Assembly: GCA_045118155.1 (NCBI GenBank)
Contig: JBGUXS010000078.1
Span: forward strand, 443 to 64,442
DNA: 64,000 nt
Origin: Alphaproteobacteria bacterium
GTDB lineage: Bacteria > Pseudomonadota > Alphaproteobacteria > CAAHEQ01 > UBA3637
Direction: 5' to 3'
Positions 6,065-34,897 of this stretch are shown in pieces (the stretch's first letter is position 1; each line of letters starts with the position of its first letter). The position numbers were made by a program, and so were the translations under genes. The notes beneath the pieces are model-generated. The model did not search any database and was not told the origin of the DNA. It worked only from the letters and a program-made list of their open reading frames with translations.

Positions 6065-6065
6065 T

Positions 6066-6524: not shown

Positions 6525-6931
6525 GACAAATCTTGCTTAACATGTGGCGTTTGCAAAAGTTCTTCAATGTGATCGGCCACTTCTAAGGAAGTATCTTTTT
6601 TAAAGATTAAATCTGGCACAATTCTTAACCGGATTTCTTTTCCAATGCGGTAACGAAAAAGGCCTTTATGTGCATTTAACAACTTCACTTGTTCATTCAC
6701 ATCAATTCCCCCGATACCATTTACAAAAACACTTGCGTAACTCAAATCTGGGGAAATGTTAGCTTGTGTGATTTGTAAAGCCCTTGGTTTTAAACCTGAA
6801 ATAAACAAATCCTCTTTAACCAACATCTGTCCAATTAGACGCCGAATGCTTTCTGAAACCCGAAGTTGCCGTTGTGATTGTTCTGACGTTTTCATAGAAG
6901 CTATTATACCTTTTTTTCTTGTTCCTTTCAA
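6521..6931 (-). CDS. rbfA: Ribosome-binding factor A
   Basis: RbfA-like core; the SESIRRLIGQMLVKEDL motif region is present. The true start may be the internal Met at about 6895. Confidence 0.8.
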   Translation of the reverse strand: MKGTRKKGIIASMKTSEQSQRQLRVSESIRRLIGQMLVKEDLFISGLKPRALQITQANISPDLSYASVFVNGIGGIDVNEQVKLLNAHKGLFRYRIGKEIRLRIVPDLIFKKDTSLEVADHIEELLQTPHVKQDLS

Positions 6932-6939
6932 GAATCTTT

Positions 6940-7680
6940 TTAGAACAAGTATCTAAGCCCCACCAAAACCGTCTGACTTTTATTTTCAACAGAAATCGGA
7001 GTTTTAGAAACTTTATCTGTCAATGAAATACGGCCTGGATCCATATAACGGTACCCTACATCTAAATCCAAATCCCGACCTAAATGTGTCGTGACACCGG
7101 CGGCTACATTCCAAGCCATTTTATACTTCCATGTTTCATGATTATAATGGTTCGTTCCTTTGTCTGATTGAACACGAATACGGGATTGGCTGACCCCGAT
7201 TCCTCCCCCAATATAAGGGCTAAAAGTATAAGAAGGGAACAAATCATAATAGGCATTCAAAAAATAAGTATTCATTTTAATATTGCTTGCCCGAACCCGT
7301 GTTCCATCATCCAACTTAAATACCGCATCCCTTTTCCCATGAGAATTATAGCTACCTTCAAGTTCCGTCCGCACATTTCCAAGCATTGTTTTGACTTGAA
7401 CCCCCAAAGCCCCGCTTAATTCCATCAGCTCATCCTTTTTTTTCTGAGATTGCCCCCCAATAGCGGGTTCAAAATCCCGTCCTTTATAGCCGATTTTTGC
7501 CTCAACATAAACCCGTTGACTAGGTTCCAAAGAATTATCTTTCAGACTCTCTTCCATATATTTGTTCTTATCATCCATCACGTAAAAATCAGTATCTCCC
7601 GCATAAGAGGCATAGTAGACACCAGCTTGTGCGTAATAACTTGACAAAACAAAAAAAGTAAAAATAAGCTTCTTCATCAT
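6940..7680 (-). CDS. Small outer-membrane beta-barrel protein (OmpA/Opa-like porin family)
   Basis: Signal peptide MMKKLIFTFFVLSSYYAQA. Alternating amphipathic strands rich in aromatic residues and Gly. The C-terminal residue is Phe (LVGLRYLF). Confidence 0.7.
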   Translation of the reverse strand: MMKKLIFTFFVLSSYYAQAGVYYASYAGDTDFYVMDDKNKYMEESLKDNSLEPSQRVYVEAKIGYKGRDFEPAIGGQSQKKKDELMELSGALGVQVKTMLGNVRTELEGSYNSHGKRDAVFKLDDGTRVRASNIKMNTYFLNAYYDLFPSYTFSPYIGGGIGVSQSRIRVQSDKGTNHYNHETWKYKMAWNVAAGVTTHLGRDLDLDVGYRYMDPGRISLTDKVSKTPISVENKSQTVLVGLRYLF

Positions 7681-7698: not shown

Positions 7699-9510
7699 TT
7701 AGTCCCGTGTTACTTCGGGAAGGGTAAAATTATTTTCATCAAAAACACAGTATGTTTCAACCCGGGCGCTTAACGTATTGTCCCCCAAAGTTCCCCCTGT
7801 AAAATTCGTGGAACCCGCCCCCGTAACATAGCCAACTTCTATCCCCCATACTCTGGCAATATCCGCTTCGGTTTCTGCCTTTGCTTTATGAACATTATTA
7901 ACAGCCACAGCCACCGTATAGCGCGACACATTTGCATTTGTGACATTTGTGGTAGATCCATTTGTTACACCTTCAAAACTGTTCAAAACGTCCTTTCCGG
8001 TTGTTCGGATCGGGGTAACCACCAAAGCGGCCTTATATCCGGCCGGGCATGCTGGCGTTGTCACATTTGCCCGCAAGCAATTGTTCGTATATCCACTACA
8101 GTTCCCTAAATTAGCTTCTGTCGTTAATTCGGTAATAGATTTTGAAACATAATTCGGCAAGATATCACTTAATCTCGCCCCACCACGAGAAGCCAACTTA
8201 ACATCATTCATCACAGACGTATAAGCTGGATCTACCTGATAATGATCATACGTTTCTGATTCATTAGCAGCTTGAGCATCCACAAATTCAACGGATGAAT
8301 CAATACCTTTTGCAGACACGACTGCATTTTCTACTAACTGACCATCTGCATCATAAGCATTCAGCGTAACTTTCCCCTTGGAAGATCCATCTGTGGCTTC
8401 TTCAGCTTCGGCCTTTAAGACATCACGTCCGGCACTATCTCTGGTAATAATCTGCCCATTAGCATTGACAATAACCCGACGTTTGCCCGTGGCATCATAA
8501 ACGGTCACTGCCCGCTTGTCATTATCCACAGGATCAGTGGAAATAACGGCCGTTGAAACAAAGGCTTGAATTGTTTCCCCATCGTTCACGGGATCATCCA
8601 TAGAAACCGCTTGACGTCCTACATGCAAATCATTGCGGACATAAACATTCCCCGGGGTTCCTGCCAATCCTTCATCCGTTCCGTTTTCAAGATGTTCTGC
8701 CCCTACCCAAAATAAGGGGGCACATTCTTCCCCTGCATCCAAAATTGTATAACCGGTTGCATCTTTTCTAAAGCAATTCGTATTTCCTTCGCCAATAGAA
8801 AAATAGCTCCAAGCATGCAAGTTTTTGAAAGCGGCTTCATCTTCTAAAGAAGAAAAGAGTGCCCCTTCATCAAATCCAGTAAATGCAACATAAGACGGGC
8901 TTACCACAGGTTCCATCATCAAAGATGCCCCTTCTAATTCCCAAGTTCCCATGGTGCCTACAAAATTATCCCCTTGGACGATACCCCCATCAGCCCCAAT
9001 CAAGGCAGCGATACTAGCCGCCCGCTTTAAATTCCATGTTCCTTGCGGCAGTGCCGATGCTTTAGGTAAGATAACTCCATAAAAAGAGGTCCCAACTTTT
9101 GCCCCTTCCGTATTTTCTAAATTTTTCCCAAAAAGGTAAAAATTGTATTTTTCAGCCGTACTTGATGTCAAAACATCCCCTGTGTACGTGTTATAGGTCA
9201 CTGGTAAGTATGTTGCCACATTTTTCCACAACGTGTTATATGAACAATTGGAAGTTTCTGTTCCAGACAATGCACAAACCCCACCACCGGCTGTGGCTAA
9301 TTCTTCAAGTTGCCTATGTTGCGTTTGGATAAAAGAGGAAAAAGCTTCCTTCATCGTACGCATTTCGGTCGCTACATTAACATTGGCTAGTTCCCGATTA
9401 CGTTGTGCCACTTGCCTATACAAAACAGGTCCCAACACCGCCAAGATCCCTAAGACGGCAATAGCTTCTATCATAATAGACCCAGATTGGGTTTTTACAG
9501 CTTTTTTCAT
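7699..9510 (-). CDS. Large (603 aa) type IV pilin-like / pseudopilin-like protein with a class III signal peptide
   Basis: N-terminus MKKAVKTQSG|SIMIEAIAVLGILAVLGPVLY has a basic leader, Gly at -1, Glu at +5 and a hydrophobic helix followed by Pro/Tyr. The Gly/Thr/Asn/Val-rich body has C-terminal Cys pairs. Confidence 0.55.
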   Translation of the reverse strand: MKKAVKTQSGSIMIEAIAVLGILAVLGPVLYRQVAQRNRELANVNVATEMRTMKEAFSSFIQTQHRQLEELATAGGGVCALSGTETSNCSYNTLWKNVATYLPVTYNTYTGDVLTSSTAEKYNFYLFGKNLENTEGAKVGTSFYGVILPKASALPQGTWNLKRAASIAALIGADGGIVQGDNFVGTMGTWELEGASLMMEPVVSPSYVAFTGFDEGALFSSLEDEAAFKNLHAWSYFSIGEGNTNCFRKDATGYTILDAGEECAPLFWVGAEHLENGTDEGLAGTPGNVYVRNDLHVGRQAVSMDDPVNDGETIQAFVSTAVISTDPVDNDKRAVTVYDATGKRRVIVNANGQIITRDSAGRDVLKAEAEEATDGSSKGKVTLNAYDADGQLVENAVVSAKGIDSSVEFVDAQAANESETYDHYQVDPAYTSVMNDVKLASRGGARLSDILPNYVSKSITELTTEANLGNCSGYTNNCLRANVTTPACPAGYKAALVVTPIRTTGKDVLNSFEGVTNGSTTNVTNANVSRYTVAVAVNNVHKAKAETEADIARVWGIEVGYVTGAGSTNFTGGTLGDNTLSARVETYCVFDENNFTLPEVTRD

Positions 9511-14668: not shown

Positions 14669-15059
14669 GGGCCACCAATGAACGTACCCGTTCTACCATA
14701 GAAAAAAAACCATTCCGACGCGTGGGGGATAAATGATCTTCTAGACCTAAATCCTTAAAAATCCGTTCTATATCCAATTCCCGAATAAAAGCAGCTGTTT
14801 GCCCATTAATTAGGGAAAGTAAAATAGCCTCTAACCCCCGTACAATAAAGGCATCGCTATCGGCAACAAAAAAGAACTTATCCCCTTTTTGCTGAACAGT
14901 AATCCACACTTGTGATTGGCATCCTTGGACCTTATGGGCTTCTGTTTTATCTTCTTCTGGCATCGGGGGTAAACTCTGTCCTAATTCAATTAGGTATTGG
15001 TATTTTTCTTCCCAATCCGTAAATAAAGAAAAATTATCAATTAATTCCTGTTCTGTCAT
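14661..15059 (-). CDS. sufE: SufE-like cysteine desulfuration/sulfur-acceptor protein
   Basis: 132 aa with a SufE-like fold signature including a conserved Cys (GCQSQVW). Confidence 0.7.
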   Translation of the reverse strand: MTEQELIDNFSLFTDWEEKYQYLIELGQSLPPMPEEDKTEAHKVQGCQSQVWITVQQKGDKFFFVADSDAFIVRGLEAILLSLINGQTAAFIRELDIERIFKDLGLEDHLSPTRRNGFFSMVERVRSLVAHA

Positions 15060-16462
15060 TCAATGTTTTTTAATCCTTCTAGTGTTAATTTTACCTTTAT
15101 TATATCAACACTGCGATTTTTTTCATCAAAAATACGCTTATCCTCTTGTAAAAAAGGACGTAAGTCTTTTAATAATCCAGCATCTTCAGTAGCTTGACAC
15201 GCTGAATTTTGTAAAAATTCTTTTTCTTGAGGGGTTGTTTGAACCGCCACATTTTGTAAATAGGTTTGCATCAAAGTACATTGTTCTTCATCAATCGGTT
15301 TGGCTGGGGGAGAAATAGCATCAAAATTCCGAATAAGAAATTCAATATCTCCAACGGGTTTTTCCTTTTCAATCTGTCCTGTAAAATGCACATCTATAAC
15401 CGCTTGTACACTTTCCAAACTTCCTTTAACATCCAAATCAGCCCCTTTTAGCAGCCCCCAAGAAAAATCTTTAGAAAGCAATTGTTCTACTAATATTTCA
15501 CGATCAAACTTTTTGGCTTTGATAACTAATTTTCCCTTTTCTGGGATAAACCCTTTGGTCGGGACATTCCCTATACACGCGAATGTTAGGTTAATTTCAG
15601 CTTCCTCCCCCTTAAATTCTACTTGCCCTTCTACCTGCGTTAAAATAATCTTTCTGGGGTAAACGGGAAATACTAAATCCGCCTGTGGTATTTCAAATTC
15701 AATTTTTCCTGTATCCGCCAATAACCATGCATTATGTAAAATAGGGGCTAATCCCTGAAACCGTGCTTTTTCCGTTAAAGAAGCCACCGTCCCTTGCACT
15801 TCTTTCCCCGTAAATGTCAACCCCAAAAGGGAGGCTTTTTGTTCAATAACGGGAACATGCCCCAAAAAAGAAAACATATATTTGCCGTTTGCTTCATCCA
15901 CTTTCAATTGCCATTCGGGGCGCGTCAGGTGTACATGGCTAGCACTCCACCGATCTTCGGCAATCAAATCCCAATACGGGTGCCATTTAAATTCATTTTG
16001 CCACTTTTCAACATAGAAAAAATTGGGTTCAAATACCGCGGTTGCAAAACCTTCTAGTTGTTCTTTTGGGGGAAAGTGTCCCCGATATAACGTCGTCCCT
16101 TCTAATTGCCCATCTGGGGTCAATAATACCCCTTGTGTAGGGAAAGTCATTTCATCCGGTGTTTCTTTAAGTGGCATCCAAACGGTCAGAACTTTTTTCT
16201 TCAAGTCTAAATCATTCTTCACAGATGCTTCTGGCAATATTAAACTTGCTTGATCGGCTCGTTGTTGCAAAACAGCCCCCGAAATCCCCAATGCCTTTAA
16301 CTTCGCCCTTAGGGCCTTAGCCAAAGTATCATGATCCGGTCGTGTCAACACAGTGGATGGGGTTACGTAAGACATAGCATTAGGGAAAAAACGCGTTAAC
16401 ACCGCGCCTTGCAAAGCAACTGCCCCTACAAGAGCCAGACGTCCCAATAATTTTGCTAACAT
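15056..16462 (-). CDS. Hypothetical secreted/periplasmic protein (468 aa)
   Basis: N-terminal signal-like segment LALVGAVALQGAV. No recognisable domain. It is co-directional with sufE-truB. Confidence 0.45.
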   Translation of the reverse strand: MLAKLLGRLALVGAVALQGAVLTRFFPNAMSYVTPSTVLTRPDHDTLAKALRAKLKALGISGAVLQQRADQASLILPEASVKNDLDLKKKVLTVWMPLKETPDEMTFPTQGVLLTPDGQLEGTTLYRGHFPPKEQLEGFATAVFEPNFFYVEKWQNEFKWHPYWDLIAEDRWSASHVHLTRPEWQLKVDEANGKYMFSFLGHVPVIEQKASLLGLTFTGKEVQGTVASLTEKARFQGLAPILHNAWLLADTGKIEFEIPQADLVFPVYPRKIILTQVEGQVEFKGEEAEINLTFACIGNVPTKGFIPEKGKLVIKAKKFDREILVEQLLSKDFSWGLLKGADLDVKGSLESVQAVIDVHFTGQIEKEKPVGDIEFLIRNFDAISPPAKPIDEEQCTLMQTYLQNVAVQTTPQEKEFLQNSACQATEDAGLLKDLRPFLQEDKRIFDEKNRSVDIIKVKLTLEGLKNIE

Positions 16463-17444: not shown

Positions 17445-18818
17445 CTATCCCCCAAGAGCTTTATAGATATGAATTAAATCCTGATATAAGGCATGGGTTG
17501 CCTGCACAAGTTCTCTTTGGCCAGCAATTAAATTCTGAAAAGCCGTGAGTACTTCAGAAAATGAAATCAACCCCCCAGTATATTTATCATATGTCAACTG
17601 ATAAACTTGTTGTAAATGGCTTAAACTTTGGTGCCTTAAATCATGAGTTTTTAAATCTTGATCTAACTCAACATAGGCATTTTTCACTTCATGAACCGCC
17701 GTCAGTAAAGCCTTTTCATAAGCAAGCAATTTTTCTTCCTTCATTTCTTTTTGAAGGATAATATTCTGTCGTAATACGCCCCAGTGAAACAACGGGGTAC
17801 TTACCCCAGGAAGTAGATGATATGTATAACTTTTATGATTAAGCAAAGAACTGACTTTATTATCTTGAAATCCCAAAAAAGTAGATAAATTGACTTTTGG
17901 GAAAAGCTCAGCAACAGCCATCCCAACAGCCGCATTTTGCCCAATTAATTCTTCTTCGGCGACACGGACATCTGGCCGATTCCGAAGCAATGAAACGCTA
18001 GCATCATACACCCGATTAACATCAAACAAAAACGGCTCTAAAATAATATTATGGGAACTTGCCAACTCTTTATTAAGCGTATTTGGTAAGTTCCCCAATA
18101 ATAAAGCAAGCGTATTTTTCTCTACCTGTTCTTGGGCTTTTAAGCCAGGTAATGCCGCCTTTGTTTCTGCTAACAAATATTTGGCTTGTTCTAATTCTAA
18201 TTTCGTTTCCAAGCCACTTTGATATTTCTTTTGAACCAAGTGTAACAAATCTTCTTGTGTCTTTATATTGCGCTGTAATAGGGATATCTGAGCTTGGACC
18301 ATACGTAATGACATATAAGCTAACGCTAATTGTGCCTGCACAGAAACAAAGACATTTTTTAATGCTTCTTGGGCCCCACGATAACTACTTTCTGCTTGCT
18401 CTGTCTGGCGACGTCCTCCGCCAAAGATATCTAATTCCCAATTGACATCAAAACCAACTTGATAATAATCTTCCTTAAGCAACATTGGCATAGATTTAGG
18501 CTCTTTTACATAGGTATACCCCGCTTCAATATCCACCATCGGTAAATTCTGCACGGATGTCTTTTTTAAAAAAGCACGTGCTTGTCTTAACCGCATAAGC
18601 GCTTGCCCAATATCTAGATTTTGTTCAGCTGTTTTAGTAAGCATACGGGTTAAAGGGGCTTCGTGAAAATCACTTAAATGAAAAGGTGCGTGAACCTGTT
18701 TGTTTTGAGATAAACCTAAAATTTGAGCCACTTCTTTATCTTCAAAAAAGATGGGACGTTGATAATCCGGTCCAACCGTGCACGAAACCAACACAAAAAA
18801 AAGAATAATTTTTTTCAT
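17445..18818 (-). CDS. RND efflux outer-membrane factor lipoprotein (NodT/OprM/TolC family)
   Basis: Lipobox LVSCTVGPDYQRP; 457 aa. It overlaps the RND pump gene by 4 nt. Confidence 0.85.
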   Translation of the reverse strand: MKKIILFFVLVSCTVGPDYQRPIFFEDKEVAQILGLSQNKQVHAPFHLSDFHEAPLTRMLTKTAEQNLDIGQALMRLRQARAFLKKTSVQNLPMVDIEAGYTYVKEPKSMPMLLKEDYYQVGFDVNWELDIFGGGRRQTEQAESSYRGAQEALKNVFVSVQAQLALAYMSLRMVQAQISLLQRNIKTQEDLLHLVQKKYQSGLETKLELEQAKYLLAETKAALPGLKAQEQVEKNTLALLLGNLPNTLNKELASSHNIILEPFLFDVNRVYDASVSLLRNRPDVRVAEEELIGQNAAVGMAVAELFPKVNLSTFLGFQDNKVSSLLNHKSYTYHLLPGVSTPLFHWGVLRQNIILQKEMKEEKLLAYEKALLTAVHEVKNAYVELDQDLKTHDLRHQSLSHLQQVYQLTYDKYTGGLISFSEVLTAFQNLIAGQRELVQATHALYQDLIHIYKALGG

Positions 18819-21800
18819 ATCTTTTTCCTTTTCCGGCGTATTTTAGGAACCGGAACCTTAAAATAACAGTGACGGCCAATCCCTTCACAAATACCATATA
18901 AGGCCGGAATAAATAAAATCCCAATACATGTAGCCGCTAACATCCCCGCGAATACCGTAACCCCAATGGATATCTGGCTGGAAGCCCCTGCCCCCGTGGC
19001 AAGCAACATAGGGACAACCCCTAAAATAAATGTTAAAGCCGTCATTAATACGGCACGAAAGCGTTCTTTTGCCCCATAAATACAGGATTGAACCAACGAT
19101 TGTCCTTGTCCACGGGCTTGTAAAATAAATTCCACAATTAAAATCGCATTTTTACTAGCAAGACCAATGAGTAATACTAACCCTAGCTGAGCATAAATAC
19201 TTAAAGGAAGGCCCCAAATCATGAGGCCTATCAAGGCCCCTAATAAAGCAAAAACATTTGAAAAAATGACCGAAAATGCCGTTAACCAACTTTCATATAA
19301 CCCAACCAAAAACAAATATCCAAAAATAATTGCCAACACAATTAAAATAAGAACCAAGCCCGATGTTTTAACCTCTTGTAAGCTCAATCCTGTCCAAGCT
19401 AACGCATACTTTGGTCCTAAGTCGTTCACCATTTTTTGCACCTGTTGAATTCCTTGCCCAGAACTCACCTCTTGTTTTGTAGCCGCTGTCACTGGAGCAC
19501 TTAAATACTGGTTAAACCGATACACAATCTTAGGGCTGAGTATGGTTTTGAACTCTATCAAATTTTTAAGGCGCACCATATTTCCACCCAAACTTGGAAC
19601 ATATAAATTTTCAATATTATTTTGATCTTGACGATAGGGGAAAGCCGCTTGTACAATCACTTTGTTAACTTGCCCTTGAACAGGAATATTATTAACATAT
19701 TGAGACCCTAAATTCGCTTGTAATACAGAAAAAATATTAGAAATTGGGACATGATAATTCAACGCTTTTGTACGATCAATTTCCAAAAATAAATGGGGAC
19801 TTCCAGGGGTTAATGTACTAAATCCAAACACAAAATTAGGGCTTTTTCGTATTTTTTGTATAACAGATTGCGTAGATATAAATAATTTTTCAAAAGAAAC
19901 ATCTTCATCTATAGCATTAATTTGAAAAGAAAGGCCATCACTTGTTCCAACGCCAGGAATAGATGGTAAGGCATAAAATTCTATAGATGCTTGCGTATTA
20001 TGCGTATAATTTTCCTGTAAACCATTTAAAATATGTGCTAAAGAAAGTGTTTTTGTTGTTCGTTGTTCCCATGGTTTTAACCCCACTACCCCCATCGCAA
20101 TATTTTCCCCTTGTCCCCCTAAAAAACTAACCCCAACAACAGAAATAAAATAACGAACCCCAGGTAAAGCCAGTATTTTTTGAGATAATTTTTCTAAGAC
20201 CGCTTCTGTCCTATTCCGGCTGGCTGTTTCGGGTAATTGAATATTCGCAAAAATGACCCCCTGATCTTCCTGGGGGATAAAGGAAGTTGGCCTGATAAAA
20301 AACAAGAAAAAAGTTCCAATTAAGGTACAACTAATTAAAAAAGAACTTGTTTTTAGGTGTTCACAAAAAAACCGTACCGCAGATATATATCGCTTTTTTG
20401 TCCACTCTAACATTTCATTAAAAAAATCAAAGATCTTTAAAGGATTCTTACTCTGCCGTCCCAAAAATAAAGCACATAAAGCGGGACTTAACGTCAAGGC
20501 ATTGACCGATGAAAATACAACCGCTGTCGCAATTGTAATTGCAAATTGCTGGTAAATTTTCCCCGTAATCCCCGCCATTAACCCAACAGGAACAAAAATA
20601 GATAACAAGACAAGCGTCGTTGCTATTACCACAGTACTAATATCTTTCATTGCTTGTATAGATGCCTCTTTTGCGGGCAATTTCCTATTTGCCATTAGGT
20701 ATTGCACCCGTTCTACCACAACAATAGCATCATCCACAACCAAACCGATAGCTAAAATAAGGGCAAATAAAGTTAAGATATTAATATCAAATCCTAAGAC
20801 ATAAATAACTGCAAACGTACTGATTAATGATACAGGAATTGTTATCATTGGAATAAATGTCGCAAAGATATTTTGTAAAAAAAGATATACAACCCCAACC
20901 ACCAACAAAAAAGTAATTAATAATGTTTCAATAATCCCTTTTAACGATGCCCGCACAAAATCAGTAGAATCATATACAACTTCTAATTCCAATCCCTCTG
21001 GGAAATGATACGTCAAGGTTTTAATTTCTTGGCGTACTGCCTGCATCGTCTGCAAGGAATTTGTCCCAGGTGTCTGGCTTAAAGCCATAATAACTGCTGG
21101 CTGATTATTAAACAAAGAAGTCATTTGATAGGTATCCGCCCCCCAAGAAACTTCTGCCACATCTTTCAACCTAACAATTCCCCCTTTAGTATCCACAGCA
21201 ACCACAATTTCTTCAAAATCAGAAACACTTTTTAAAAATCCCTTTGCGCTTAAGGTTAAAACAAAAGCATTTGTCACAGGACTTGGGGCTGCCCCCAAAG
21301 ATCCAACACTAGCTTGAACATTCTGATTTTCAATTGCCTGAATAATATCTTGAGAACTTAATCCTAAAGCATTTAACTTCATAGGATTTATCCAAACACG
21401 AATACTATGTTGTGGGCCATAAACTGTTACATCCCCAACCCCATGTACCCGAGATAGTGGATTTTTTAAATAGGTATATGCATAATTACTTAAAAACAAA
21501 TCCGAATAAGAGTTATTTTTCCCTTTTAAAACAAGCATCCCTAGCATATTTGCTGATTGTAATTTTACTTCTATCCCTTCTTGACGAACTATAGGGGGCA
21601 GAATAGGTTCTACCTGTTGTAACCGATTTTGTACTTTAACCTGAGCTATATCAGGGTCGGTCCCAATATTAAAAGTAATGGTCAATTGATAAACACCATT
21701 ATCATTTGAAGTAGAAGACATATATAACATATCTTCAACCCCATTAATTTCATTTTCAATTGGAATAGCCACTGTCTCTGTTAGAATTTGAGCATTTGCA

Positions 21801-21958
21801 CCGGGATAATTAACTGAAACAATCACTTGCGGAGGGGTAATATCTGGATATTGGGAAATTGGCAACACACTTATCGCTAATCCCCCCAACAAAACCATTA
21901 CAATAGCAATAACGGCCGCAAACCTAGGATGAGTAATACAAAATTGGGAACCCGTCAT
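18815..21958 (-). CDS. RND family multidrug efflux transporter (AcrB/MexB-like)
   Basis: 1047 aa with 12 TM segments, two large periplasmic loops and an AcrB-like N-terminus. Confidence 0.9.
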   Translation of the reverse strand: MTGSQFCITHPRFAAVIAIVMVLLGGLAISVLPISQYPDITPPQVIVSVNYPGANAQILTETVAIPIENEINGVEDMLYMSSTSNDNGVYQLTITFNIGTDPDIAQVKVQNRLQQVEPILPPIVRQEGIEVKLQSANMLGMLVLKGKNNSYSDLFLSNYAYTYLKNPLSRVHGVGDVTVYGPQHSIRVWINPMKLNALGLSSQDIIQAIENQNVQASVGSLGAAPSPVTNAFVLTLSAKGFLKSVSDFEEIVVAVDTKGGIVRLKDVAEVSWGADTYQMTSLFNNQPAVIMALSQTPGTNSLQTMQAVRQEIKTLTYHFPEGLELEVVYDSTDFVRASLKGIIETLLITFLLVVGVVYLFLQNIFATFIPMITIPVSLISTFAVIYVLGFDINILTLFALILAIGLVVDDAIVVVERVQYLMANRKLPAKEASIQAMKDISTVVIATTLVLLSIFVPVGLMAGITGKIYQQFAITIATAVVFSSVNALTLSPALCALFLGRQSKNPLKIFDFFNEMLEWTKKRYISAVRFFCEHLKTSSFLISCTLIGTFFLFFIRPTSFIPQEDQGVIFANIQLPETASRNRTEAVLEKLSQKILALPGVRYFISVVGVSFLGGQGENIAMGVVGLKPWEQRTTKTLSLAHILNGLQENYTHNTQASIEFYALPSIPGVGTSDGLSFQINAIDEDVSFEKLFISTQSVIQKIRKSPNFVFGFSTLTPGSPHLFLEIDRTKALNYHVPISNIFSVLQANLGSQYVNNIPVQGQVNKVIVQAAFPYRQDQNNIENLYVPSLGGNMVRLKNLIEFKTILSPKIVYRFNQYLSAPVTAATKQEVSSGQGIQQVQKMVNDLGPKYALAWTGLSLQEVKTSGLVLILIVLAIIFGYLFLVGLYESWLTAFSVIFSNVFALLGALIGLMIWGLPLSIYAQLGLVLLIGLASKNAILIVEFILQARGQGQSLVQSCIYGAKERFRAVLMTALTFILGVVPMLLATGAGASSQISIGVTVFAGMLAATCIGILFIPALYGICEGIGRHCYFKVPVPKIRRKRKKI

Positions 21959-27459: not shown

Positions 27460-27758
27460 TGCCACCATTTTTAAGCCCTGATGAAGATTCGTGTCTTTTA
27501 CACATTTTATTGGTTCCTAATGCTAAAGAAAATAAGATTTATGGTCTTTTTAATGAACGATTAAAACTTTATATTTCTGCCCCAGCTGTGGACGGAAAAG
27601 CGAATAAAGCTTTAATTAAATACCTGGCTGATCTCTTTAACCTAAAAAAAAATCAGATTTCCTTGATACAAGGGGAAAGATCCCATCAAAAAACAGTACG
27701 ACTAGATGCCCCTATTGACCACATCTGTACTTGTTTAAGTCAACATATTTCCGTGTAA
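27456..27758 (+). CDS. yggU: DUF167/YggU family protein
   Basis: 100 aa with LKLYISAPAVDGKANKALIKYLADLF, typical of YggU. It overlaps the amiC stop by 4 nt. Confidence 0.65.
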   Translation: MMPPFLSPDEDSCLLHILLVPNAKENKIYGLFNERLKLYISAPAVDGKANKALIKYLADLFNLKKNQISLIQGERSHQKTVRLDAPIDHICTCLSQHISV

Positions 27759-28805
27759 AATACGTGTAATCTCGCTTCCTTGCATCAAAGAAAAACCTAA
27801 GGCTTGGGCTTGTTGTATTTCTTGAGGGGTTTGAATATCAAACAAGATAATTTTTTCTTTAGGATAATTCAAAGTAGCAGCCCATTTCATCTGTTGACTA
27901 TTAATCTTTAGGTAATGCATCGGGATTTTATCCCATGCTAAATAGGATATTTCCTCCGGAATGCGTAATAAAAAGAGGGATTGTTGATAACAAGGTATTT
28001 TTTGAATACTTTGCCATAAATCCCGTTCCCAAAGAAAATCTGATAAACTTATTTCATAAGAAATACCTTGATGTTGATACAATTGGTGCATTTCCTGATA
28101 AACGGGTTGGGTTAAAAGATAAGGACTCGCAGAAAAAACTCCTCCTTGTGTTTTGGGCAATTCCTTTTTTAAAATTTTTGTATACAGCGCATTCTTAAAG
28201 GCCCTTTTCAAATATGTATCAGAATCCAATATCACCTTTGGAAATAGAACTTGACGGACATCAATATCTTTACAAAAAACACTGGTAAATACAGGAACCA
28301 TCTCGGTTAAATCATGAACCTGACAAATGCATTGATGCCGTGTTAAATGTGAAACATCCGCTGTTTTTAGCTCTGATAAAATATGTGTGAGAGTTGGGGT
28401 ATCCAAGGGCAATGAAGGAATTTTTTGAAGCACTTTTAAATCAGAAAAATCTGCTGTTGGGGTTAGCTCTTGATGATTAATTTTATGGATCAAAGCATTA
28501 AAATCTGTGATTAAATTAAAAAATGATAATTTATGTTCTTGGAAAAAGGATTTTTCCAGCCCCTTTAATTTCAAGGAAAGCAACATCATATCCTGTAATT
28601 TATTATGGGCAAAAAAGGCAACGCTATCCCCTTCGCTTAAAAAGAACAATTTCGTTTGATATGTCTGTTCAAAAGAACTCAAAAAATGCAAAAGAACCTT
28701 TTTTTTCTCATCTTCTTTAGGTAAAGGAATATAAAGAGCATGCCCTTTAAATGTTCTTTTTTCAAGATATTTGAGATAGTCAAAAACACTATTATACCGC
28801 ATCAT
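27735..28805 (-). CDS. Hypothetical protein with a degenerate EAL-like C-terminal half (catalytic residues not evident)
   Basis: 356 aa. The C-terminus ...KIILFDIQTPQEIQQAQALGFSLMQGSEI resembles the EAL end motif (AEGVET...QG). No DDFGTG or EAL motif is present. Confidence 0.4.
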   Translation of the reverse strand: MMRYNSVFDYLKYLEKRTFKGHALYIPLPKEDEKKKVLLHFLSSFEQTYQTKLFFLSEGDSVAFFAHNKLQDMMLLSLKLKGLEKSFFQEHKLSFFNLITDFNALIHKINHQELTPTADFSDLKVLQKIPSLPLDTPTLTHILSELKTADVSHLTRHQCICQVHDLTEMVPVFTSVFCKDIDVRQVLFPKVILDSDTYLKRAFKNALYTKILKKELPKTQGGVFSASPYLLTQPVYQEMHQLYQHQGISYEISLSDFLWERDLWQSIQKIPCYQQSLFLLRIPEEISYLAWDKIPMHYLKINSQQMKWAATLNYPKEKIILFDIQTPQEIQQAQALGFSLMQGSEITRILHGNMLT

Positions 28806-29874
28806 ATCCCCTTAAATGTTGCACACACACGCATTGTGATGCTTGATGCGGGATCGCCCCCATTTGCATACACGTTTGTAAAGCACAATCTCCCCCATAT
28901 GGACACGTTTTTTTTCGAGAAGCCGCATGAATCAAATCAATAAAATCACCTTGAAAAAAGGTATATGGGGAAGACAGAATTTGAGTTAATTTTTCTTGCG
29001 TATCCACTCCTGTTACAAAAACAGGAACATGATTGATTGATTGTGTTAAACAAACTTCTACGGGAAGAAGTAAAAAATCAGCTTCTAATAAATCAAAACG
29101 ATAAAAGGCCGTTTCTGCAGTAATGCCCCCAATACCTAACCGATACTGTTTTCCTGGACGAGTTAGGGCTTCCTTATACAGATTTTTATTTAACAAGACT
29201 TCTGCAATATCTAAAATAATCCAAACTGGGTCATTATTTTCAATCCAAGCACTTTCCAACGTTCCTTGCACCATCAAAGGCAATGTCGTTTGTTTAAACA
29301 GCTCTTTATTTGGGTGTTGCAATAATTGTTTCTGTATTTTCTGAACTAACCACATTGGAAGCTGATCCATATTGTTTTTTAAGGTCCATGTATATCCCCA
29401 CAGAGAGTTGCTCCCCTTTTGATAAATTACCCGCCTAAACCAACTATTTTTTTCGGGAATATCTTTTAAAAAAGCCTCATAATCAACCTCTTGATTCGTT
29501 TGCTTTTTAGCTATCTGAATCAGGGACAAAACCCCCATCAAATCCTGTGGTAAATGGAACAAGCGTACATTTTCTTCTTTTTTTCCTGTTTGAATTTGAA
29601 AAAATGTTTGAATTTGGCGCATCACATCCACAACTTGATGTTCATCAAGATCAACCCCTATTAATAAACGATCTTGTTGTTCAAATGTAAAAAGCCGACA
29701 ATATTCATACGCTAATAACGGTTCTAATAAATGTTCTATGACGTGCATCAACCTTTCGGCCCCTGGCAGACCTAATAATTGACTTGTCCCTATCCAAAGG
29801 ACAACCGACGGTGTTTCTAAAGCAGCGACACGCTTTATTGTTTCTAAGGCCAGTTGTTCTTGTGTCTCATACAT
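28792..29874 (-). CDS. Hypothetical protein with a degenerate EAL-like C-terminal half and a Cys-rich tail
   Basis: 360 aa. The segment ...YRLGIGGITAETAFYRFDLLEADFLLLP...VFVTGVDTQEKLTQILSSPYTFFQGDFI is EAL-like without catalytic residues. The tail reads CPYGGDC...C.C. Confidence 0.4.
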   Translation of the reverse strand: MYETQEQLALETIKRVAALETPSVVLWIGTSQLLGLPGAERLMHVIEHLLEPLLAYEYCRLFTFEQQDRLLIGVDLDEHQVVDVMRQIQTFFQIQTGKKEENVRLFHLPQDLMGVLSLIQIAKKQTNQEVDYEAFLKDIPEKNSWFRRVIYQKGSNSLWGYTWTLKNNMDQLPMWLVQKIQKQLLQHPNKELFKQTTLPLMVQGTLESAWIENNDPVWIILDIAEVLLNKNLYKEALTRPGKQYRLGIGGITAETAFYRFDLLEADFLLLPVEVCLTQSINHVPVFVTGVDTQEKLTQILSSPYTFFQGDFIDLIHAASRKKTCPYGGDCALQTCMQMGAIPHQASQCVCVQHLRGYDAV

Positions 29875-29980
29875 TTTTTCTTCCTAAACTTGAGCTTTCA
29901 GTATAAAGGATATCCTTGAAAAAACAACTTGTTTTTTTGGGAAAAATCTTGCATACTCCTTTCAATAGGAGGAATCACAC

Positions 29981-31951
29981 ATGCATTACTTAACAGGGGA
30001 AGAAGTTTCTGTCACATCCTTAAAAACAATAGCCCAAGAATTTGGTTTTATGTTGTGGCCGCACCCCGATGATCCTTTCTTATTGCATAAAACACCCTAT
30101 CAAAGTTTTCCAGAAATGCTTTCTGTCCTTACAGATCATATTACAGAAAAAAAACTTAATTCCCTCTTCACTTTCCCTGTTTCTTTCATCTTAGATGCGA
30201 ATGCACAATCTGAATCCTTACATAACTTCTTTAAATATCAAGCCCGTAACCAATTGGATAAAACCATCGGTGTCTTGCTAACTTGCCCCGTTATTTACGC
30301 CTGTGATGTTGCGCAAATTTTTACCGAAGCCTTACATCAACGATTACACTTTCCTAGCACACGTTACAGTAATATTCATATGGCTATTCATGAAGCGCTC
30401 GTCAATGGTTTAGTGCATGGAAATCTAAAACTACCTAGTTCTTTACGGCAATCAGCTCGTGATTTCGTTGATTACGCCCGCATTGTTAATGAACGCTTAT
30501 TAGACCCTGCCTATGCTAATAAATCCATCAGTATTTGGGCTACTTGGAATACCTCTAGATTGGAAATTAAGATTCGGGACGAAGGGGCTGGATATACGGT
30601 TTTACCCCCCCATAAAAAACATGTGGCAGAAAAACGTTCTGGACGGGGGCTTTATCTAATTGCCGGAACTGCTGATTCCTGCACAATTGATGATTTTGGG
30701 CGAGAAATCACATTATCTTTTATTCTAAATAATCTAAACAACGAACAAGATATCGGGGTTTCTGAAAATGCGGCTTTACTGCATGATCCTGTAACCGATT
30801 TTTCGGATTGTCGTATTTTAATCATTGAAGATAACCCCAGTAATCAAATCTTGGTTTCACAACTTTTAAACGTGGTTGGAATTGGTCATATTGAAACAGC
30901 TCAAGATGGGGTTGAAGGCCTTGAAAAAGCATTCAGTATGAAACCAGACTTAGTCATTTTGGACATCACTATGCCCCGAATGAATGGATATGAAGTACTT
31001 CACCAACTCAGAACAAATCAAGATACGGCCTCTATCCCGGTTTTAATTCAAACGGCTTCTGATACACGGGCAGCACGGGATAAAACTTTTAGTGCGGGGG
31101 CAACAGACTTTATCACAAAGCCATTAAATCCTTTGGAATTTTTCTCTCGGATACGGGTACACTTAGAAAATAGATTACTTGTAAAACATCTTGAAACGAA
31201 ACTCGCTCAAATCAATGAAGAACTAGAACTTGCCCAAAAAATGCAAGAAAGTTTATTACCCCCCACGGAAGCACTTCAAGATATCAGCCAACGTTATCAT
31301 CTAGATATTTCTTATACGTTCTTACCTTCTTCCCATTTAGGGGGGGATTTCTGGCAAATTTTTCCATTGGCTAAAGATAAGGTCGCTTTTTATATTTGCG
31401 ATTTTTCGGGACATGGGGTAAGTGCTGCCATGAATACGTTCCGATTACACACCTTAATCGGGCAAATGGATATGACGGCATTGAAAAAGCCTTCCGAATT
31501 TCTTTTTATGCTTAATAATTCTTTGGTCAACTTGTTGCCCAGGGGACAATTTGCTACTTTCTTCTTTGGTATTTTAAACAAGCGACAAGGAACATTAACA
31601 TATGCTGGGGCCAGTTCGCCCTTCCCTATTTTGGTTAAGGACAACAAACCCTCTTTCTTAGATACTTCCGGGATGCCTTTGGGAATTTTAAAGGACGTTA
31701 CTTATAAAGATAAAAAGGTACCATTTTCCAAAGAAATGGGCATTTTACTATACAGTGACTCTTTCACTGAACAACAAAATAAAGAAGGAAATCGCCTTGA
31801 TTATGATGGTTTTATGAAAATGACTCAGACGTGTTTCTCAGAAAAAACATCTCAACAAGTCATTGCCCAAATCATGCAAAAATTTCATGAATTTTCTGAC
31901 ACCCCTAGTACCGATGATATTACGGCTGTCTATTTGAAAGGCCTCTTATGA
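29981..31951 (+). CDS. Fusion protein: RsbW/SpoIIAB-like GHKL Ser kinase domain, CheY-like receiver domain and PP2C (SpoIIE/RsbU-like) phosphatase
   Basis: N-terminal region HMAIHEALVNGLVHGN...RDEGAGY...GRGLYLI (HATPase_c_2-like). Middle region ILIIEDNPSNQ...PDLVILDITMPRMNGYEV...TKP (REC). C-terminal region HLGGDFWQ...FYICDFSGHGVSAAM (PP2C). Confidence 0.7.
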   Translation: MHYLTGEEVSVTSLKTIAQEFGFMLWPHPDDPFLLHKTPYQSFPEMLSVLTDHITEKKLNSLFTFPVSFILDANAQSESLHNFFKYQARNQLDKTIGVLLTCPVIYACDVAQIFTEALHQRLHFPSTRYSNIHMAIHEALVNGLVHGNLKLPSSLRQSARDFVDYARIVNERLLDPAYANKSISIWATWNTSRLEIKIRDEGAGYTVLPPHKKHVAEKRSGRGLYLIAGTADSCTIDDFGREITLSFILNNLNNEQDIGVSENAALLHDPVTDFSDCRILIIEDNPSNQILVSQLLNVVGIGHIETAQDGVEGLEKAFSMKPDLVILDITMPRMNGYEVLHQLRTNQDTASIPVLIQTASDTRAARDKTFSAGATDFITKPLNPLEFFSRIRVHLENRLLVKHLETKLAQINEELELAQKMQESLLPPTEALQDISQRYHLDISYTFLPSSHLGGDFWQIFPLAKDKVAFYICDFSGHGVSAAMNTFRLHTLIGQMDMTALKKPSEFLFMLNNSLVNLLPRGQFATFFFGILNKRQGTLTYAGASSPFPILVKDNKPSFLDTSGMPLGILKDVTYKDKKVPFSKEMGILLYSDSFTEQQNKEGNRLDYDGFMKMTQTCFSEKTSQQVIAQIMQKFHEFSDTPSTDDITAVYLKGLL

Positions 31952-32655
31952 TTCGGGTGTATATAGAGGCTCTGGACCCTAAAAAACCAACACCTCTTTC
32001 TGTGGATCACTATCATTATTTGGCCCACGTTATGCGTTTAAAAGCGGGGGACAGTTTTTTAGCGTTTAATCAACTTCAAGGGGAATTTTTAGCTGTATTT
32101 CAACCTAAAAACAAAAAAGAAGGTCATCTTTTACTACAAAAACAAACGCGTTTACCAGAACAACCTCGTCCGCCTGTAACACTTTATATCGCCCCTATCC
32201 GAAAAGAAAAAATGGAACTTGTGTTACAAAAGGCAACAGAAATTGGCGTAGAGATCATCCAACCTATTTTAACGAAACATACATGCCATCGGCCTTTATC
32301 AAAAGAACGGGCGGATATTATTATAAAAGAAGCGGTAGAACAATCTGAACGGCTGACATTACCTAATTGGCTTCCCCCTATATCTTTGGAAGAACTTCTT
32401 ATTAAACGTTCAACAGATATCCCTCTTTTTTACCTATCCGAACGAGGGGAAACGCAACATATTTCTTTGCCCGCCCCTCCTATAAGCTTTCTTATCGGAC
32501 CAGAAGGGGGATTTTCTAAGGAAGAAATTACCTTATTAGGTCAACAAAAAAACGCCCAAGCTATCAACCTAGGCGCTTTTATTCTACGGGCGGAAACAGC
32601 CGCTATTGCTATGCTAGCGACCTACCGCTTTCATAAACTGTTTTATACAGCTTGA
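31948..32655 (+). CDS. rsmE: 16S rRNA (uracil1498-N3)-methyltransferase
   Basis: 235 aa with a PUA-like N-terminus and the LIGPEGGFSKEE motif. Confidence 0.8.
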   Translation: MIRVYIEALDPKKPTPLSVDHYHYLAHVMRLKAGDSFLAFNQLQGEFLAVFQPKNKKEGHLLLQKQTRLPEQPRPPVTLYIAPIRKEKMELVLQKATEIGVEIIQPILTKHTCHRPLSKERADIIIKEAVEQSERLTLPNWLPPISLEELLIKRSTDIPLFYLSERGETQHISLPAPPISFLIGPEGGFSKEEITLLGQQKNAQAINLGAFILRAETAAIAMLATYRFHKLFYTA

Positions 32656-32831
32656 CGTAGTTTTTCCTCACAGCAACACTTTTCTTCAACAAACCATATA
32701 CGATCTTCAAATTCGGATTTTTTCCCCTTATTGAATTGGCTAACAGGACGAAAATACCCCATAACCCGTGTCCAACATTCCACCGCTTGACGTTCATTAG
32801 AAAATTTTTCTAAAATTTGGTTATCTGTCAT
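32643..32831 (-). CDS. Stand-alone glycyl-radical domain (C-terminal piece of class III ribonucleotide reductase)
   Basis: 62 aa with TRVMGYFRPVSQFNKGKKSEFEDR, matching the NrdD glycyl-radical signature RVCGY...FNxGKxxE. Its ATG overlaps the nrdD stop (ATGA) and AAGGAG lies 8 nt upstream. Confidence 0.6.
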   Translation of the reverse strand: MTDNQILEKFSNERQAVECWTRVMGYFRPVSQFNKGKKSEFEDRIWFVEEKCCCEEKLRQAV

Positions 32832-34897
32832 GCTTTGTTCTCCTTTTCTGCAAGTTCTTGACGTTTTTTTTCAATGAGTTCCGCATCACACTTTGGGCAG
32901 AACTTGTGTTCCCCACTAATATACCCATGCTTGGGGCAAATAGAATAGACAGGGGTAATAGAAACATAAGGAAGATGATAATTTTCTAATACCCGTCTAA
33001 TAAGTGATTTACAAACACTTGCTGAAGAAATCCGTTCATTCATATACAGGTGCAAAACCGTTCCCCCTGTATACTGTGTTTGCAATTCATCTTGATAATC
33101 CAACGCTTTAAACGGATCATCTGTGAAGTTCTGTGGTAATTGAGAAGAGTTTGTATAATAGGGGGCCTCTTTCTTTCCTGCTTGAATAATACCAGGATAG
33201 CGTTTTTGATCTTCTTTGGCAAAACGATATGTTGTCCCTTCAGCTGGCGTTGCTTCCAAATTGTACATATTTCCTGTTTCTGCTTGGAAATCCAGCATTT
33301 TTTCCCGAATATGTGTTAAAAATTCTTTAGCCATCGCCCGCCCTTTTTCCGAAGCAATGTATTCTTCATCATTAGTAAAGTTCCGAATCATTTCATTAAT
33401 ACCATTAACCCCAATCGTGGAAAAATGATTTCGGAATGTTCCTAAATATCGCCGTGTATAAGGATACAACCCCCGATCCATGTGCATTGAAATGGTTTTA
33501 CGTTTAATTTCTAAGGAAGTCTTCGCTAATTCCAGTAATTCATCCAAACGTTTATACAATTCCTCTTTCTTCCCCTTATACAGGTATCCCAAACGGGCAC
33601 AGTTAATTGTAACAACCCCAATAGACCCCGTTTGTTCTGCTGAACCAAATAAACCACCACCTCGTTTTTTCAATTCCGTCAAATCCAACCGTAACCGACA
33701 ACACATTGAACGAATATCTGAAGGCTTCATATCAGAACTAACATAGTTTGAAAAATAGGGTAATCCATATTTAGCCGTCATTTCAAATAACAATTCCGTA
33801 TTTTCAGAATCCCATGGGAATTCATTTGTAATATTGTATGTCGGGATAGGGAAAGTAAACGGCCGCCCTTTGGCATCCCCACTTCCCATAACTTCTAAAT
33901 AAGCCCTATTAATCATATCCATTTCTTTTTGCAGATCACCATAAACAAAATCTTGTTCCACCCCCCCAATGATAGGGTGCCGATTCTTCAAATCTTCAGG
34001 GCAATTCCAATCAAAAGTTAAGTTCGTAAAGGGTGTCTGTGTCCCCCAACGCGATGGTACATTCAAGTTAAAGATGAAGGATTGCATCGCTTGTTTTACT
34101 TCTTCATAAGGTAATTTTTCAATTCGTATAAATGGTGCTAAGTACGTATCCACAGAAGAAAACGCCTGTGCCCCAGCCCATTCATTCTGCAAAGTCCCCA
34201 AGAAATTAATCATCTGGCTAAACGCAGAAACAAGGTGTTTTGGCGGTTTAGATTCTGTCTTATTGGGAACCCCATTAAAACCTTCTTCTAATAAAACCCT
34301 TAAGGACCACCCTGCACAATACCCACTCAACATATCCAAATCATGAATATGATAATCCCCATTTCGGTGAGCTTCCCCAATTTCTGGCGTATACACGTGG
34401 CTCAACCAATAATTGGCCACCACCTTTCCTGCCGTATTTAAAATCAATCCCCCTAAGGAATATCCTTGATTAGCATTTGCGTTCACCCGCCAATCTGACC
34501 GATCTAAATATTCATTAATAGAAGCCACCGCATCAATAACCGTTTTCTTATCATTCCGCATTTTTCCGCGTTGTTCACGGTACACGATATAAGCCCGGGC
34601 AGTTTTGTAATAATTAGAGGAAATTAAAACCTGTTCAACCACATCTTGAATTTGCTCAATATTAGGATAAACCCCGAAAGCAAACCGATGCTTTAAAACC
34701 TTAATAACTTGTCTTGTTAATAACCACGCTTCATCTTGACCGAATTCAGCCGTTGCTTCCCCAGCTTTCAAAATAGCAACCATAATTTTAGTCACATCAA
34801 ACGGATACTGTTGCCCATCCCGTTTAATTACATAGCTCAACGGACTAATATCAATGGTTACATTTAGCGGCTGGGCTCCTGTCAAAACTTGCAACAT
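32828..34897 (-). CDS. nrdD: Anaerobic ribonucleoside-triphosphate reductase large piece (ATP cone through zinc ribbon), lacking the glycyl-radical domain
   Basis: 689 aa with an ATP-cone N-terminus and the NrdD catalytic core. The C-terminal zinc ribbon reads CPKHGY...CPKCD. The ORF ends at an A8 tract. Confidence 0.85.
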   Translation of the reverse strand: MLQVLTGAQPLNVTIDISPLSYVIKRDGQQYPFDVTKIMVAILKAGEATAEFGQDEAWLLTRQVIKVLKHRFAFGVYPNIEQIQDVVEQVLISSNYYKTARAYIVYREQRGKMRNDKKTVIDAVASINEYLDRSDWRVNANANQGYSLGGLILNTAGKVVANYWLSHVYTPEIGEAHRNGDYHIHDLDMLSGYCAGWSLRVLLEEGFNGVPNKTESKPPKHLVSAFSQMINFLGTLQNEWAGAQAFSSVDTYLAPFIRIEKLPYEEVKQAMQSFIFNLNVPSRWGTQTPFTNLTFDWNCPEDLKNRHPIIGGVEQDFVYGDLQKEMDMINRAYLEVMGSGDAKGRPFTFPIPTYNITNEFPWDSENTELLFEMTAKYGLPYFSNYVSSDMKPSDIRSMCCRLRLDLTELKKRGGGLFGSAEQTGSIGVVTINCARLGYLYKGKKEELYKRLDELLELAKTSLEIKRKTISMHMDRGLYPYTRRYLGTFRNHFSTIGVNGINEMIRNFTNDEEYIASEKGRAMAKEFLTHIREKMLDFQAETGNMYNLEATPAEGTTYRFAKEDQKRYPGIIQAGKKEAPYYTNSSQLPQNFTDDPFKALDYQDELQTQYTGGTVLHLYMNERISSASVCKSLIRRVLENYHLPYVSITPVYSICPKHGYISGEHKFCPKCDAELIEKKRQELAEKENKA

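Follow-up and report, generated by a model that had tools for sequence, protein, structure and literature searches.

Do a multidomain kinase–phosphatase of an uncultured alphaproteobacterium and the two genes divergently transcribed beside it form one signaling module, or do two separate systems share one locus? The genes, here called K, A, and B, lie in a stretch of 64,000 nucleotides (the window; Alphaproteobacteria bacterium, GenBank assembly GCA_045118155.1, contig JBGUXS010000078.1, positions 443 to 64,442 of the forward strand). A preliminary description of the window, made from its letters alone, offered as speculation a single module that may link a two-component signal to a c-di-GMP-type effector. 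As we discuss below, several lines of evidence lead us to a different reading: we think it fairly probable that K is a bifunctional regulator of the SypE type whose partner is encoded at a distance, and that A and B are a separate and older pair of pseudoenzymes.

A divergent locus of three genes

The three open reading frames (ORFs) of 356, 360, and 656 residues are present exactly where the preliminary description had placed them. The features of the locus, with window coordinates, are as follows.

27735..28805, minus strand: gene B, ORF of 356 aa; predicted degenerate GGDEF-EAL-like pseudoenzyme without a Cys tail
27756..28400, minus strand: B residues ~136–350, predicted EAL-like (β/α) barrel (AlphaFold2 model, Foldseek, residue mapping)
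28461..28805, minus strand: B residues 1–115, predicted β-α-β-β-α-β unit; the hairpin turn, at the position expected for GGDEF, reads "EGDSV"
28792..29874, minus strand: gene A, ORF of 360 aa; predicted degenerate GGDEF-EAL-like pseudoenzyme with a C-terminal Cys4 tail
28831..28905, minus strand: A residues 324–348, C324-P-x-G-x-x-C330-x4-C335-x12-C348, invariant in 10/10 A-type sequences
29875..29980, no strand: divergent A–K intergenic region of 106 bp, with a Shine-Dalgarno sequence for both genes
29981..31951, plus strand: gene K, ORF of 656 aa; extra N-terminal domain, RsbW-type Ser kinase, receiver (REC), and PP2C
29981..30280, plus strand: K residues 1–100, family-specific α/β N-terminal domain (AlphaFold2 model)
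30308..30718, plus strand: K residues 110–246, HATPase_c_2 (Pfam E = 2.9e-11, 43.9 bits against a cut-off of 27.4 bits)
30815..31153, plus strand: K residues 279–391, Response_reg (Pfam E = 4.8e-26)
31376..31936, plus strand: K residues 466–652, SpoIIE/RsbU-type PP2C (Pfam E = 5.2e-36)
31948..32655, plus strand: rsmE, 16S rRNA methyltransferase (Pfam Methyltrans_RNA and PUA_4)

The A and B ORFs overlap by 14 nt, and the stop of K and the start of rsmE have 4 nt in common. The spacer between A and K measures ~85–115 bp in related loci, where gene calls are ORF-based and approximate, and a promoter scan of this spacer found no consensus sigma-70 site.

K is a variant of the SypE design

All three Pfam matches of K exceed their gathering thresholds, including the HATPase_c_2 and PP2C assignments on which the preliminary description had made its account of K falsifiable. 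The REC-PP2C part also matched the NCBIfam RssB model at 2e-40, a score under that model's cut-off. In an alignment of 24 family members with 48–69% identity, the catalytic signatures of every domain were invariant. These were the N-box (H137-E138, N142, and H146-G147-N148), the G1 motif (D200-E201-G202-x-G204), and the G2 motif (G221-R222-G223) of the kinase; E283/D284, the phospho-acceptor D328, T358, and K380 of the receiver; and the metal-binding residues D456, D474, D593, and D645/D646 of the phosphatase. Because all of these signatures are invariant in the 24 homologs, the three domains are predicted to be active. Domain content and intact motifs therefore agree with the original picture of K as an anti-sigma-type Ser kinase joined to a receiver with an Asp pocket and a PP2C phosphatase, and hence as a protein that would hold both opposing activities of a partner switch plus a phospho-input, although this design was already known.

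The design was published for SypE of Vibrio fischeri, which has an N-terminal Ser kinase, a central REC domain, and PP2C as its C-terminal domain, both phosphorylates SypA, a STAS protein, at Ser56 and dephosphorylates it there, and is switched from kinase to phosphatase by phosphorylation of its receiver (PMC10120452, PMC3610818). Compared by this published description, K has the identical domain order, and with its receiver Asp and PP2C metal ligands intact it would be expected to follow the same switching logic. The kinase domain of SypE comprises its first 140 residues and contains an essential Asn, N52 (PMC3610818), whose counterpart in K is N142. This difference in position indicates that K has ~90–100 more residues at its N-terminus, which form a separate α/β domain, and the kinase domain of K is thus not strictly N-terminal. 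K differs from SypE in other respects as well: it adjoins neither a sypA-like STAS gene nor a polysaccharide (syp) locus, it is co-transcribed with rsmE, and it comes from gut and rumen Alphaproteobacteria. HsbR of Pseudomonas aeruginosa and CrsR of Shewanella oneidensis also combine REC, PP2C, and an anti-sigma-type Ser kinase in one polypeptide, but in the order REC-PP2C-kinase and with a STAS partner encoded alongside, HsbA and CrsA, respectively (PMC6482189); at K the order is kinase-REC-PP2C and an adjoining STAS gene is absent. Phosphorylated HsbA binds the diguanylate cyclase HsbD, which ties that switch to cyclic di-GMP (c-di-GMP) (PMC6482189). K is therefore a variant of the known SypE-like design and not a new kind of system, and its architecture is not unusual in kind.

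The K family is large and well conserved. More than 780 database clusters matched K, and the best 120 of these are all ~650–680 aa long with the same three Pfam domains; the few named clusters are metagenome-assembled genomes (MAGs) labelled "Alphaproteobacteria bacterium". A scan of one genome per species recovered 66 K loci, nearly all in Alphaproteobacteria-labelled MAGs of human, ruminant, rabbit, or other gut origin. Across these 66 genomes, together with metagenomic clusters in the hundreds, identity within the family is ~50–68%, and ratios of nonsynonymous to synonymous substitution rates (dN/dS) of 0.06–0.09 against close and distant relatives indicate strong purifying selection. The most consistent neighbor of K is rsmE, which lies directly downstream in 63 of 65 loci. 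Three clear K homologs (in retrieved loci L016, L045, and L072) carry non-alphaproteobacterial names, two "uncultured Lactobacillales" and one "Holdemanella biformis", which probably reflect mistakes in how the source MAGs were binned or labelled. If our reading of K is correct, then kinase/REC/PP2C switches of the SypE type are not a Vibrio curiosity; an uncultured lineage of gut and rumen Alphaproteobacteria would have K as a conserved core regulator that carries a new N-terminal domain.

The N-terminal domain and the partner of K

The domain that precedes the kinase was overlooked in the preliminary description. AlphaFold2 (AF2) modeled K residues 1–100, from a 20-sequence alignment, as a small α/β domain with a predicted local distance difference test score (pLDDT) of 89.4 and a predicted template-modeling score (pTM) of 0.82. 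P44, D72, S79, F83, and T101 are invariant. These properties bear on the possibility that K is self-contained, with its N-terminal domain serving in cis as a pseudo-substrate or STAS analogue in which S79 or T101 would be phosphorylated by the kinase and dephosphorylated by the PP2C domain. The domain is fused directly upstream of the kinase, it folds confidently, and in it a β-strand that ends in an invariant Asp is followed by a helix whose N-terminus carries an invariant Ser, a context reminiscent of the phospho-serine of STAS proteins; no separate STAS gene is nearby. Structural and sequence searches speak against this model, however. A Foldseek search of the PDB found nothing significant (best E = 0.34), with a weak CheY/flavodoxin-like resemblance and no STAS protein among the hits, and neither a profile search of PDB sequences nor a Pfam search with residues 1–105 returned a match. 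We consider phosphorylation in cis to be very improbable. A built-in STAS domain at the N-terminus of K was rejected on the profile-search, AF2, and Foldseek results. Kinship of this domain with A or B was also tested and rejected, as the sequences proved to be unrelated on comparison.

Where, then, is the partner of K? Essentially every ORF of the window that reaches 90 aa was scanned against Pfam, and precomputed annotations were consulted for the central 21 kb. In agreement with the preliminary description, no STAS domain was found among these ORFs at E ≤ 1e-4 or in ten unannotated ORFs at E ≤ 1. The Pfam scan of ORFs also found no GGDEF, PilZ, histidine-kinase, Hpt, or sigma-factor gene in the 64-kb window, and STAS, histidine-kinase, GGDEF, PilZ, and sigma-factor genes were likewise not found in four other K neighborhoods. 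Most likely, the substrate of K would be a protein of the STAS type, or an analogous one, whose gene lies elsewhere in the genome.

A and B are paralogous EAL-like pseudoenzymes

Standard methods say little about A and B. Neither protein matched Pfam or NCBIfam at E ≤ 1, BLASTP detected no significant similarity between them, and phmmer and small A/B family profiles found nothing relevant among PDB sequences. Pfam, in other words, recovered the domains of K as anticipated and left A and B invisible, and deeper methods were needed. A word-indexed homolog search returned only 2–3 relatives of A and B. Two unannotated genes in the same divergent position were nonetheless seen in loci where K is 55–68% identical, and iterative profile searches over the ORFs of the retrieved loci settled at 16 proteins of the A type and 16 of the B type, which always occur as an ordered, overlapping pair with A closest to K. 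Alignment of the A-family and B-family profiles by hhalign gave a probability of 98.6% and E = 1.4e-15 over 311 columns. By this profile alignment, A and B, which had been described as paralogous-looking, are true paralogs whose sequences run collinear for almost their entire length. A combined MAFFT alignment of both families placed the N-terminal halves wrongly and was set aside.

Multiple results connect the C-terminal halves of A and B with EAL domains. First, the AF2 model of B, made from a 3-sequence alignment with a mean pLDDT of 69.6 and values of 80–90 over residues 200–340, contains an N-terminal β-α-β-β-α-β unit, a β-hairpin, and then repeated β/α units. Foldseek matched this model to PDB structures with a probability of 1.00 and E values down to 1.8e-8, both to tandem GGDEF-EAL proteins over ~400–428 columns (MorA, DosP, RbdA/PA0861, LapD, and PA0575, plus the BLUF-EAL protein BlrP1) and to isolated EAL domains over ~240–260 columns with TMt ~0.5 (FimX, YahA, PdeA, and RbdA). 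Second, an exhaustive HMMER search with the B profile found 230 proteins at E ≤ 1e-3, mostly of 390–440 aa. All ten of the relatives that we scanned carry a divergent Pfam EAL domain (PF00563), six of them above the gathering score, and one relative is annotated as an "EAL domain-containing protein" of Thalassospira tepidiphila. Third, a 25-sequence broad profile with B as its first row matched the solved EAL domain of RbdA with E = 1.3e-8. Taken together, the Foldseek and profile evidence identifies the C-terminal halves of A and B as homologs of EAL domains, with the (β/α) barrel being predicted in the B model and, for A, through paralogy; by Pfam's own measure, direct membership of A and B in PF00563 is not supported. 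The preliminary description had staked its account of the two neighbors on an EAL fold, which the B model matches, and profile searches, Foldseek, and residue mapping agree with its statement that the two resemble EAL in their C-terminal halves without having the catalytic residues.

The N-terminal half of B resembles a GGDEF domain by topology only (β-α-β-β-α-β-α), with pLDDT values of 60–78 in this region and a low global TM score of 0.33–0.42. Pfam GGDEF (PF00990) had no match in A, B, or the ten relatives, and the motif is replaced by E-G-D-S-V in B. As whole proteins, A and B thus appear to be GGDEF-EAL-like tandems, an arrangement that had been overlooked and whose GGDEF half is tentatively assigned by fold topology in the B model.

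Which EAL residues remain? Mapping through alignments showed that B keeps Q158, E250, K300, and Q342-G343 and has lost the Asn (now S-A-S), both Asp residues of DDFGTG (R281 at the first), and the Glu of EGVE. The Glu of the "EAL" motif itself also appears to be lost (T174/S175), as judged from the alignment at the hairpin motif. In all, B keeps ~4 of ~10 EAL signature positions and A, which is also without the catalytic Lys, keeps fewer. On this residue pattern, phosphodiesterase activity of A and B can be excluded with good confidence, and canonical c-di-GMP binding is doubtful. Both genes, fast-evolving as they are, are nevertheless maintained. At dS ~0.15, A has a dN/dS of 0.14 and B one of 0.045, which indicates purifying selection, and the ORFs are intact in relatives at 20–30% identity. 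We therefore rejected the idea that A and B are decaying pseudogenes, as dN/dS of 0.05–0.15 and intact ORFs across deep divergence mark them as functional pseudoenzymes.

These results also bear on the claim that A and B are typical of c-di-GMP receptors, which could mean that they belong to the LapD/FimX type of degenerate EAL receptors and bind the nucleotide without cleaving it, thereby coupling c-di-GMP to an output. LapD and FimX are among the top fold matches of the B model, they share with A and B the loss of catalytic residues, and loss of catalysis under continued selection is the pattern of such receptors (reviewed in PMC7288161). In addition, B keeps one Glu, the Lys, the "QG" motif, and the Gln (RxQ in place of the EAL "YQP"). 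Against these points stand the loss from B of the EAL Glu, the Asn, both DDFGTG Asp residues, and the EGVE Glu, and from A of the Lys as well; the phosphate-binding Arg of ExLxR, moreover, appears from the alignment to be absent already in the broader family. Known degenerate-EAL receptors have lost fewer signature residues than A and B. No GGDEF, PilZ, or other c-di-GMP gene lies in the window, and the versions of A and B in locus L010 are shortened to 241 and 265 aa. With ~4 of ~10 signature positions in B and fewer in A, to call the pair typical receptors was an overstatement, and we hold a receptor function for them to be unlikely.

An equally good analogy is the non-binding YdiV type. YdiV and STM1697 have an EAL fold without the catalytic and most nucleotide-binding residues, and they act through protein–protein contacts. 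They are single-domain proteins of ~240 aa, however, and have no GGDEF-like half, no paralogous partner gene, and no Cys4 tail. The better-known tandem proteins also differ from A and B. Although the B model aligns over near its full length with MorA, RbdA/PA0861, DosP, LapD, and FimX at a probability of 1.00, A and B are much shorter than these proteins (356–360 aa), have no sensor or transmembrane parts, are undetectable by the Pfam EAL and GGDEF models, and form an asymmetric two-gene pair in which one member has a Cys4 tail.

A Cys4 tail in an old two-gene module

The invariant Cys4 tail of A, which the preliminary description overlooked, is absent from B-type proteins. In all eight tandem pairs that we checked, including the pairs of L079 and L080 that lie away from K, Cys4 was present in the upstream member only. 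The tail was also found in P0143, P0176, P0191, and P0245 and in L103, L107, L118, and L120. Its four invariant cysteines suggest a putative metal (Zn or Fe-S) or redox site.

A metagenome scan with the broader family yielded 329 confirmed relatives, and we analyzed the loci of the best 80 of these, which come from human-gut and marine or marine-sediment assemblies and from Joint Genome Institute (JGI) samples and de-replicate to 25 clusters. The tandem two-paralog arrangement is present in ~17 of the 25, and the Cys4 tail marks a sub-branch of the upstream paralog that comprises gut lineages plus L118 and L120. The A/B pair is thus an old and widespread two-gene module of EAL-like paralogs, apparently uncharacterized, and the copies in the window, with no Pfam match, are invisible to standard annotation. 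EAL domains tend to dimerize, and this tendency, taken with translational coupling of the two genes, suggests that A and B could form a heterodimer. Metabolic genes predominate among those that flank the broad family (epimerases, metallophosphoesterases, CobT, and PfkB), and in Thalassospira the homolog stands by itself. We therefore rejected a general tie of the EAL-like pair to signaling genes.

Two variants of the pair were observed. In human-gut loci L080/L081 (2598..7293) and L103 (~3384..7281), a less degenerate pair of one Cys4-EAL-like and one EAL-like protein, of 423–430 aa each, lies on the same strand as, and directly downstream of, a gene for a hybrid histidine kinase with the architecture SBP_bac_3-HisKA-HATPase_c-REC, in what looks like one operon. 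In the K-bearing lineage of L010, L011, and L018 (e.g., L010 6407..7916), which has the short A and B of 241 and 265 aa, the entire N-terminal half of A is missing and its Cys4 tail retained, and B has lost the end of its EAL-like domain.

Are A and B tied to K?

Several comparisons failed to uphold the single module of the preliminary description. First, A/B adjoins K in only 5 of the 54 species-level loci that have enough upstream sequence to be evaluated, and a broad profile at E ≤ 10, aimed at A/B-like genes of greater divergence, found none near K in the remaining ~60 loci. Second, K directly adjoins the NMO gene in 12 loci, whereas in A/B-bearing relatives that gene lies beyond B. In a neighbor-joining tree of K, in which deep branches are unreliable, the A/B-bearing loci fall in three places and are interleaved with the NMO-direct lineages. 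This patchy distribution fits an ancestral order NMO-B-A-K-rsmE with repeated loss of A/B. Third, rsmE and NMO are equally syntenic, and adjacency of K and A/B may thus merely reflect descent. Finally, EAL-like pairs of the same kind lie elsewhere beside unrelated genes. K clearly functions without the A/B pair in most relatives.

Could A and/or B nevertheless be the working partners of K, taking the place of a STAS protein as its substrate or binding partner in one partner-switching-like module? The ~100-bp divergent spacing is kept in every long-enough contig with a close A/B pair, at K identities of 55–100%, the window has no STAS gene, and the binding of phosphorylated HsbA to HsbD sets a precedent (PMC6482189). 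By contrast, ~90% of the evaluable species loci have K without A/B, the pair seems to have been lost several times while K remained intact, and neither the A-type nor the B-type alignment contains an invariant Ser or Thr that could serve as phospho-acceptor. In addition, rsmE and NMO, which have no plausible functional link to K, are just as syntenic, and related pairs mostly stand beside metabolic genes. We accordingly judge a working partnership to be unlikely, and a direct functional link between K and A/B lies, in our estimate, between unlikely and tentatively possible. In another version, A and B would be the sensing partner of K, with the Cys4 site sensing metal or redox state and an A–B heterodimer either binding K or acting as its non-STAS substrate. 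This proposal has little probability in our view; if true, c-di-GMP pseudoenzymes would take the place of a STAS protein in a partner-switching circuit.

Some observations weigh against our reading that K and A/B are separate. All long-enough contigs with a close A/B family have K divergently adjoining (the window, L007, L009, L010, L013, L029, L073, L082, and L085), and the retention of A/B beside K despite divergence to 20–30% identity fits a functional tie. The pair that follows the REC-containing hybrid histidine kinase in another gut lineage provides a second association with a receiver. Other points concern parts of the reading: the B model, built from 3 sequences, is of no more than moderate quality (pLDDT 69.6); that a STAS gene is encoded elsewhere in the genome is an assumption, as our search covered the window and other K contexts; and the A–B heterodimer and its metal site are ideas that we infer.

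A model for K and for the A/B pair

We favor the following scheme, in which K works with a distant partner and A/B forms an independent module. By analogy to SypE and HsbR, the RsbW-like kinase of K would phosphorylate a Ser or Thr of a small partner protein, and the PP2C domain would remove that phosphate. Phosphorylation of the receiver at D328, by a histidine kinase or phosphorelay encoded elsewhere, would set the balance between kinase and phosphatase, again by analogy. A and B, translationally coupled through their 14-nt overlap, would probably act as a heterodimeric adaptor, with the Cys4 of A as a possible metal or redox site. In one sub-lineage of gut Alphaproteobacteria, where A/B stands divergently beside K, the two systems may share regulation, or the pair may contribute a signal input to the K pathway. 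Current understanding is not overturned by these proposals, but the SypE-like K and the pseudoenzyme pair provide testable signaling leads in organisms without genetics.

Other genes in the window

Immediately beyond rsmE, the gene for the anaerobic ribonucleotide reductase NrdD is apparently split into ORFs of 689 aa (32828..34897, minus strand) and 62 aa (32643..32831, minus strand) that overlap by 4 nt. The longer ORF stops just past the C-terminal Cys-rich segment (CPKHG...CPKC), and the shorter holds the glycyl-radical motif (TRVMGYFRP) and overlaps rsmE convergently at its 3′ end by 13 nt. The two pieces are also called separately in matching contigs L001–L004.

A gene for an RND efflux pump (18815..21958, minus strand) is a single 1047-aa ORF in the window and two genes of 543 and 496 aa in L001 (16843..19986), which otherwise matches; this difference suggests a frameshift or an assembly difference. 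Four further ORFs, of 603 aa (7699..9510, minus strand), 468 aa (15056..16462, minus strand), 380 aa (2199..3341, plus strand), and 263 aa (57272..58063, plus strand), had no Pfam match at E ≤ 1 beyond chance level.

Two type IV secretion genes lie ~48 kb apart amid housekeeping genes, one encoding a VirD4/TraG-like coupling protein (3351..5522, plus strand) and one encoding a VirB4/TrbE-like ATPase (53802..56237, plus strand), and unannotated ORFs stand beside them (2199..3341, 5522..6064, 5916..6524, and 53497..53805). A short gene (1801..2142, minus strand) that encodes an RNHCP-domain protein (PF12647, E = 1e-25) has a Cu-oxidase_4 family gene on one side and an unannotated ORF on the other.

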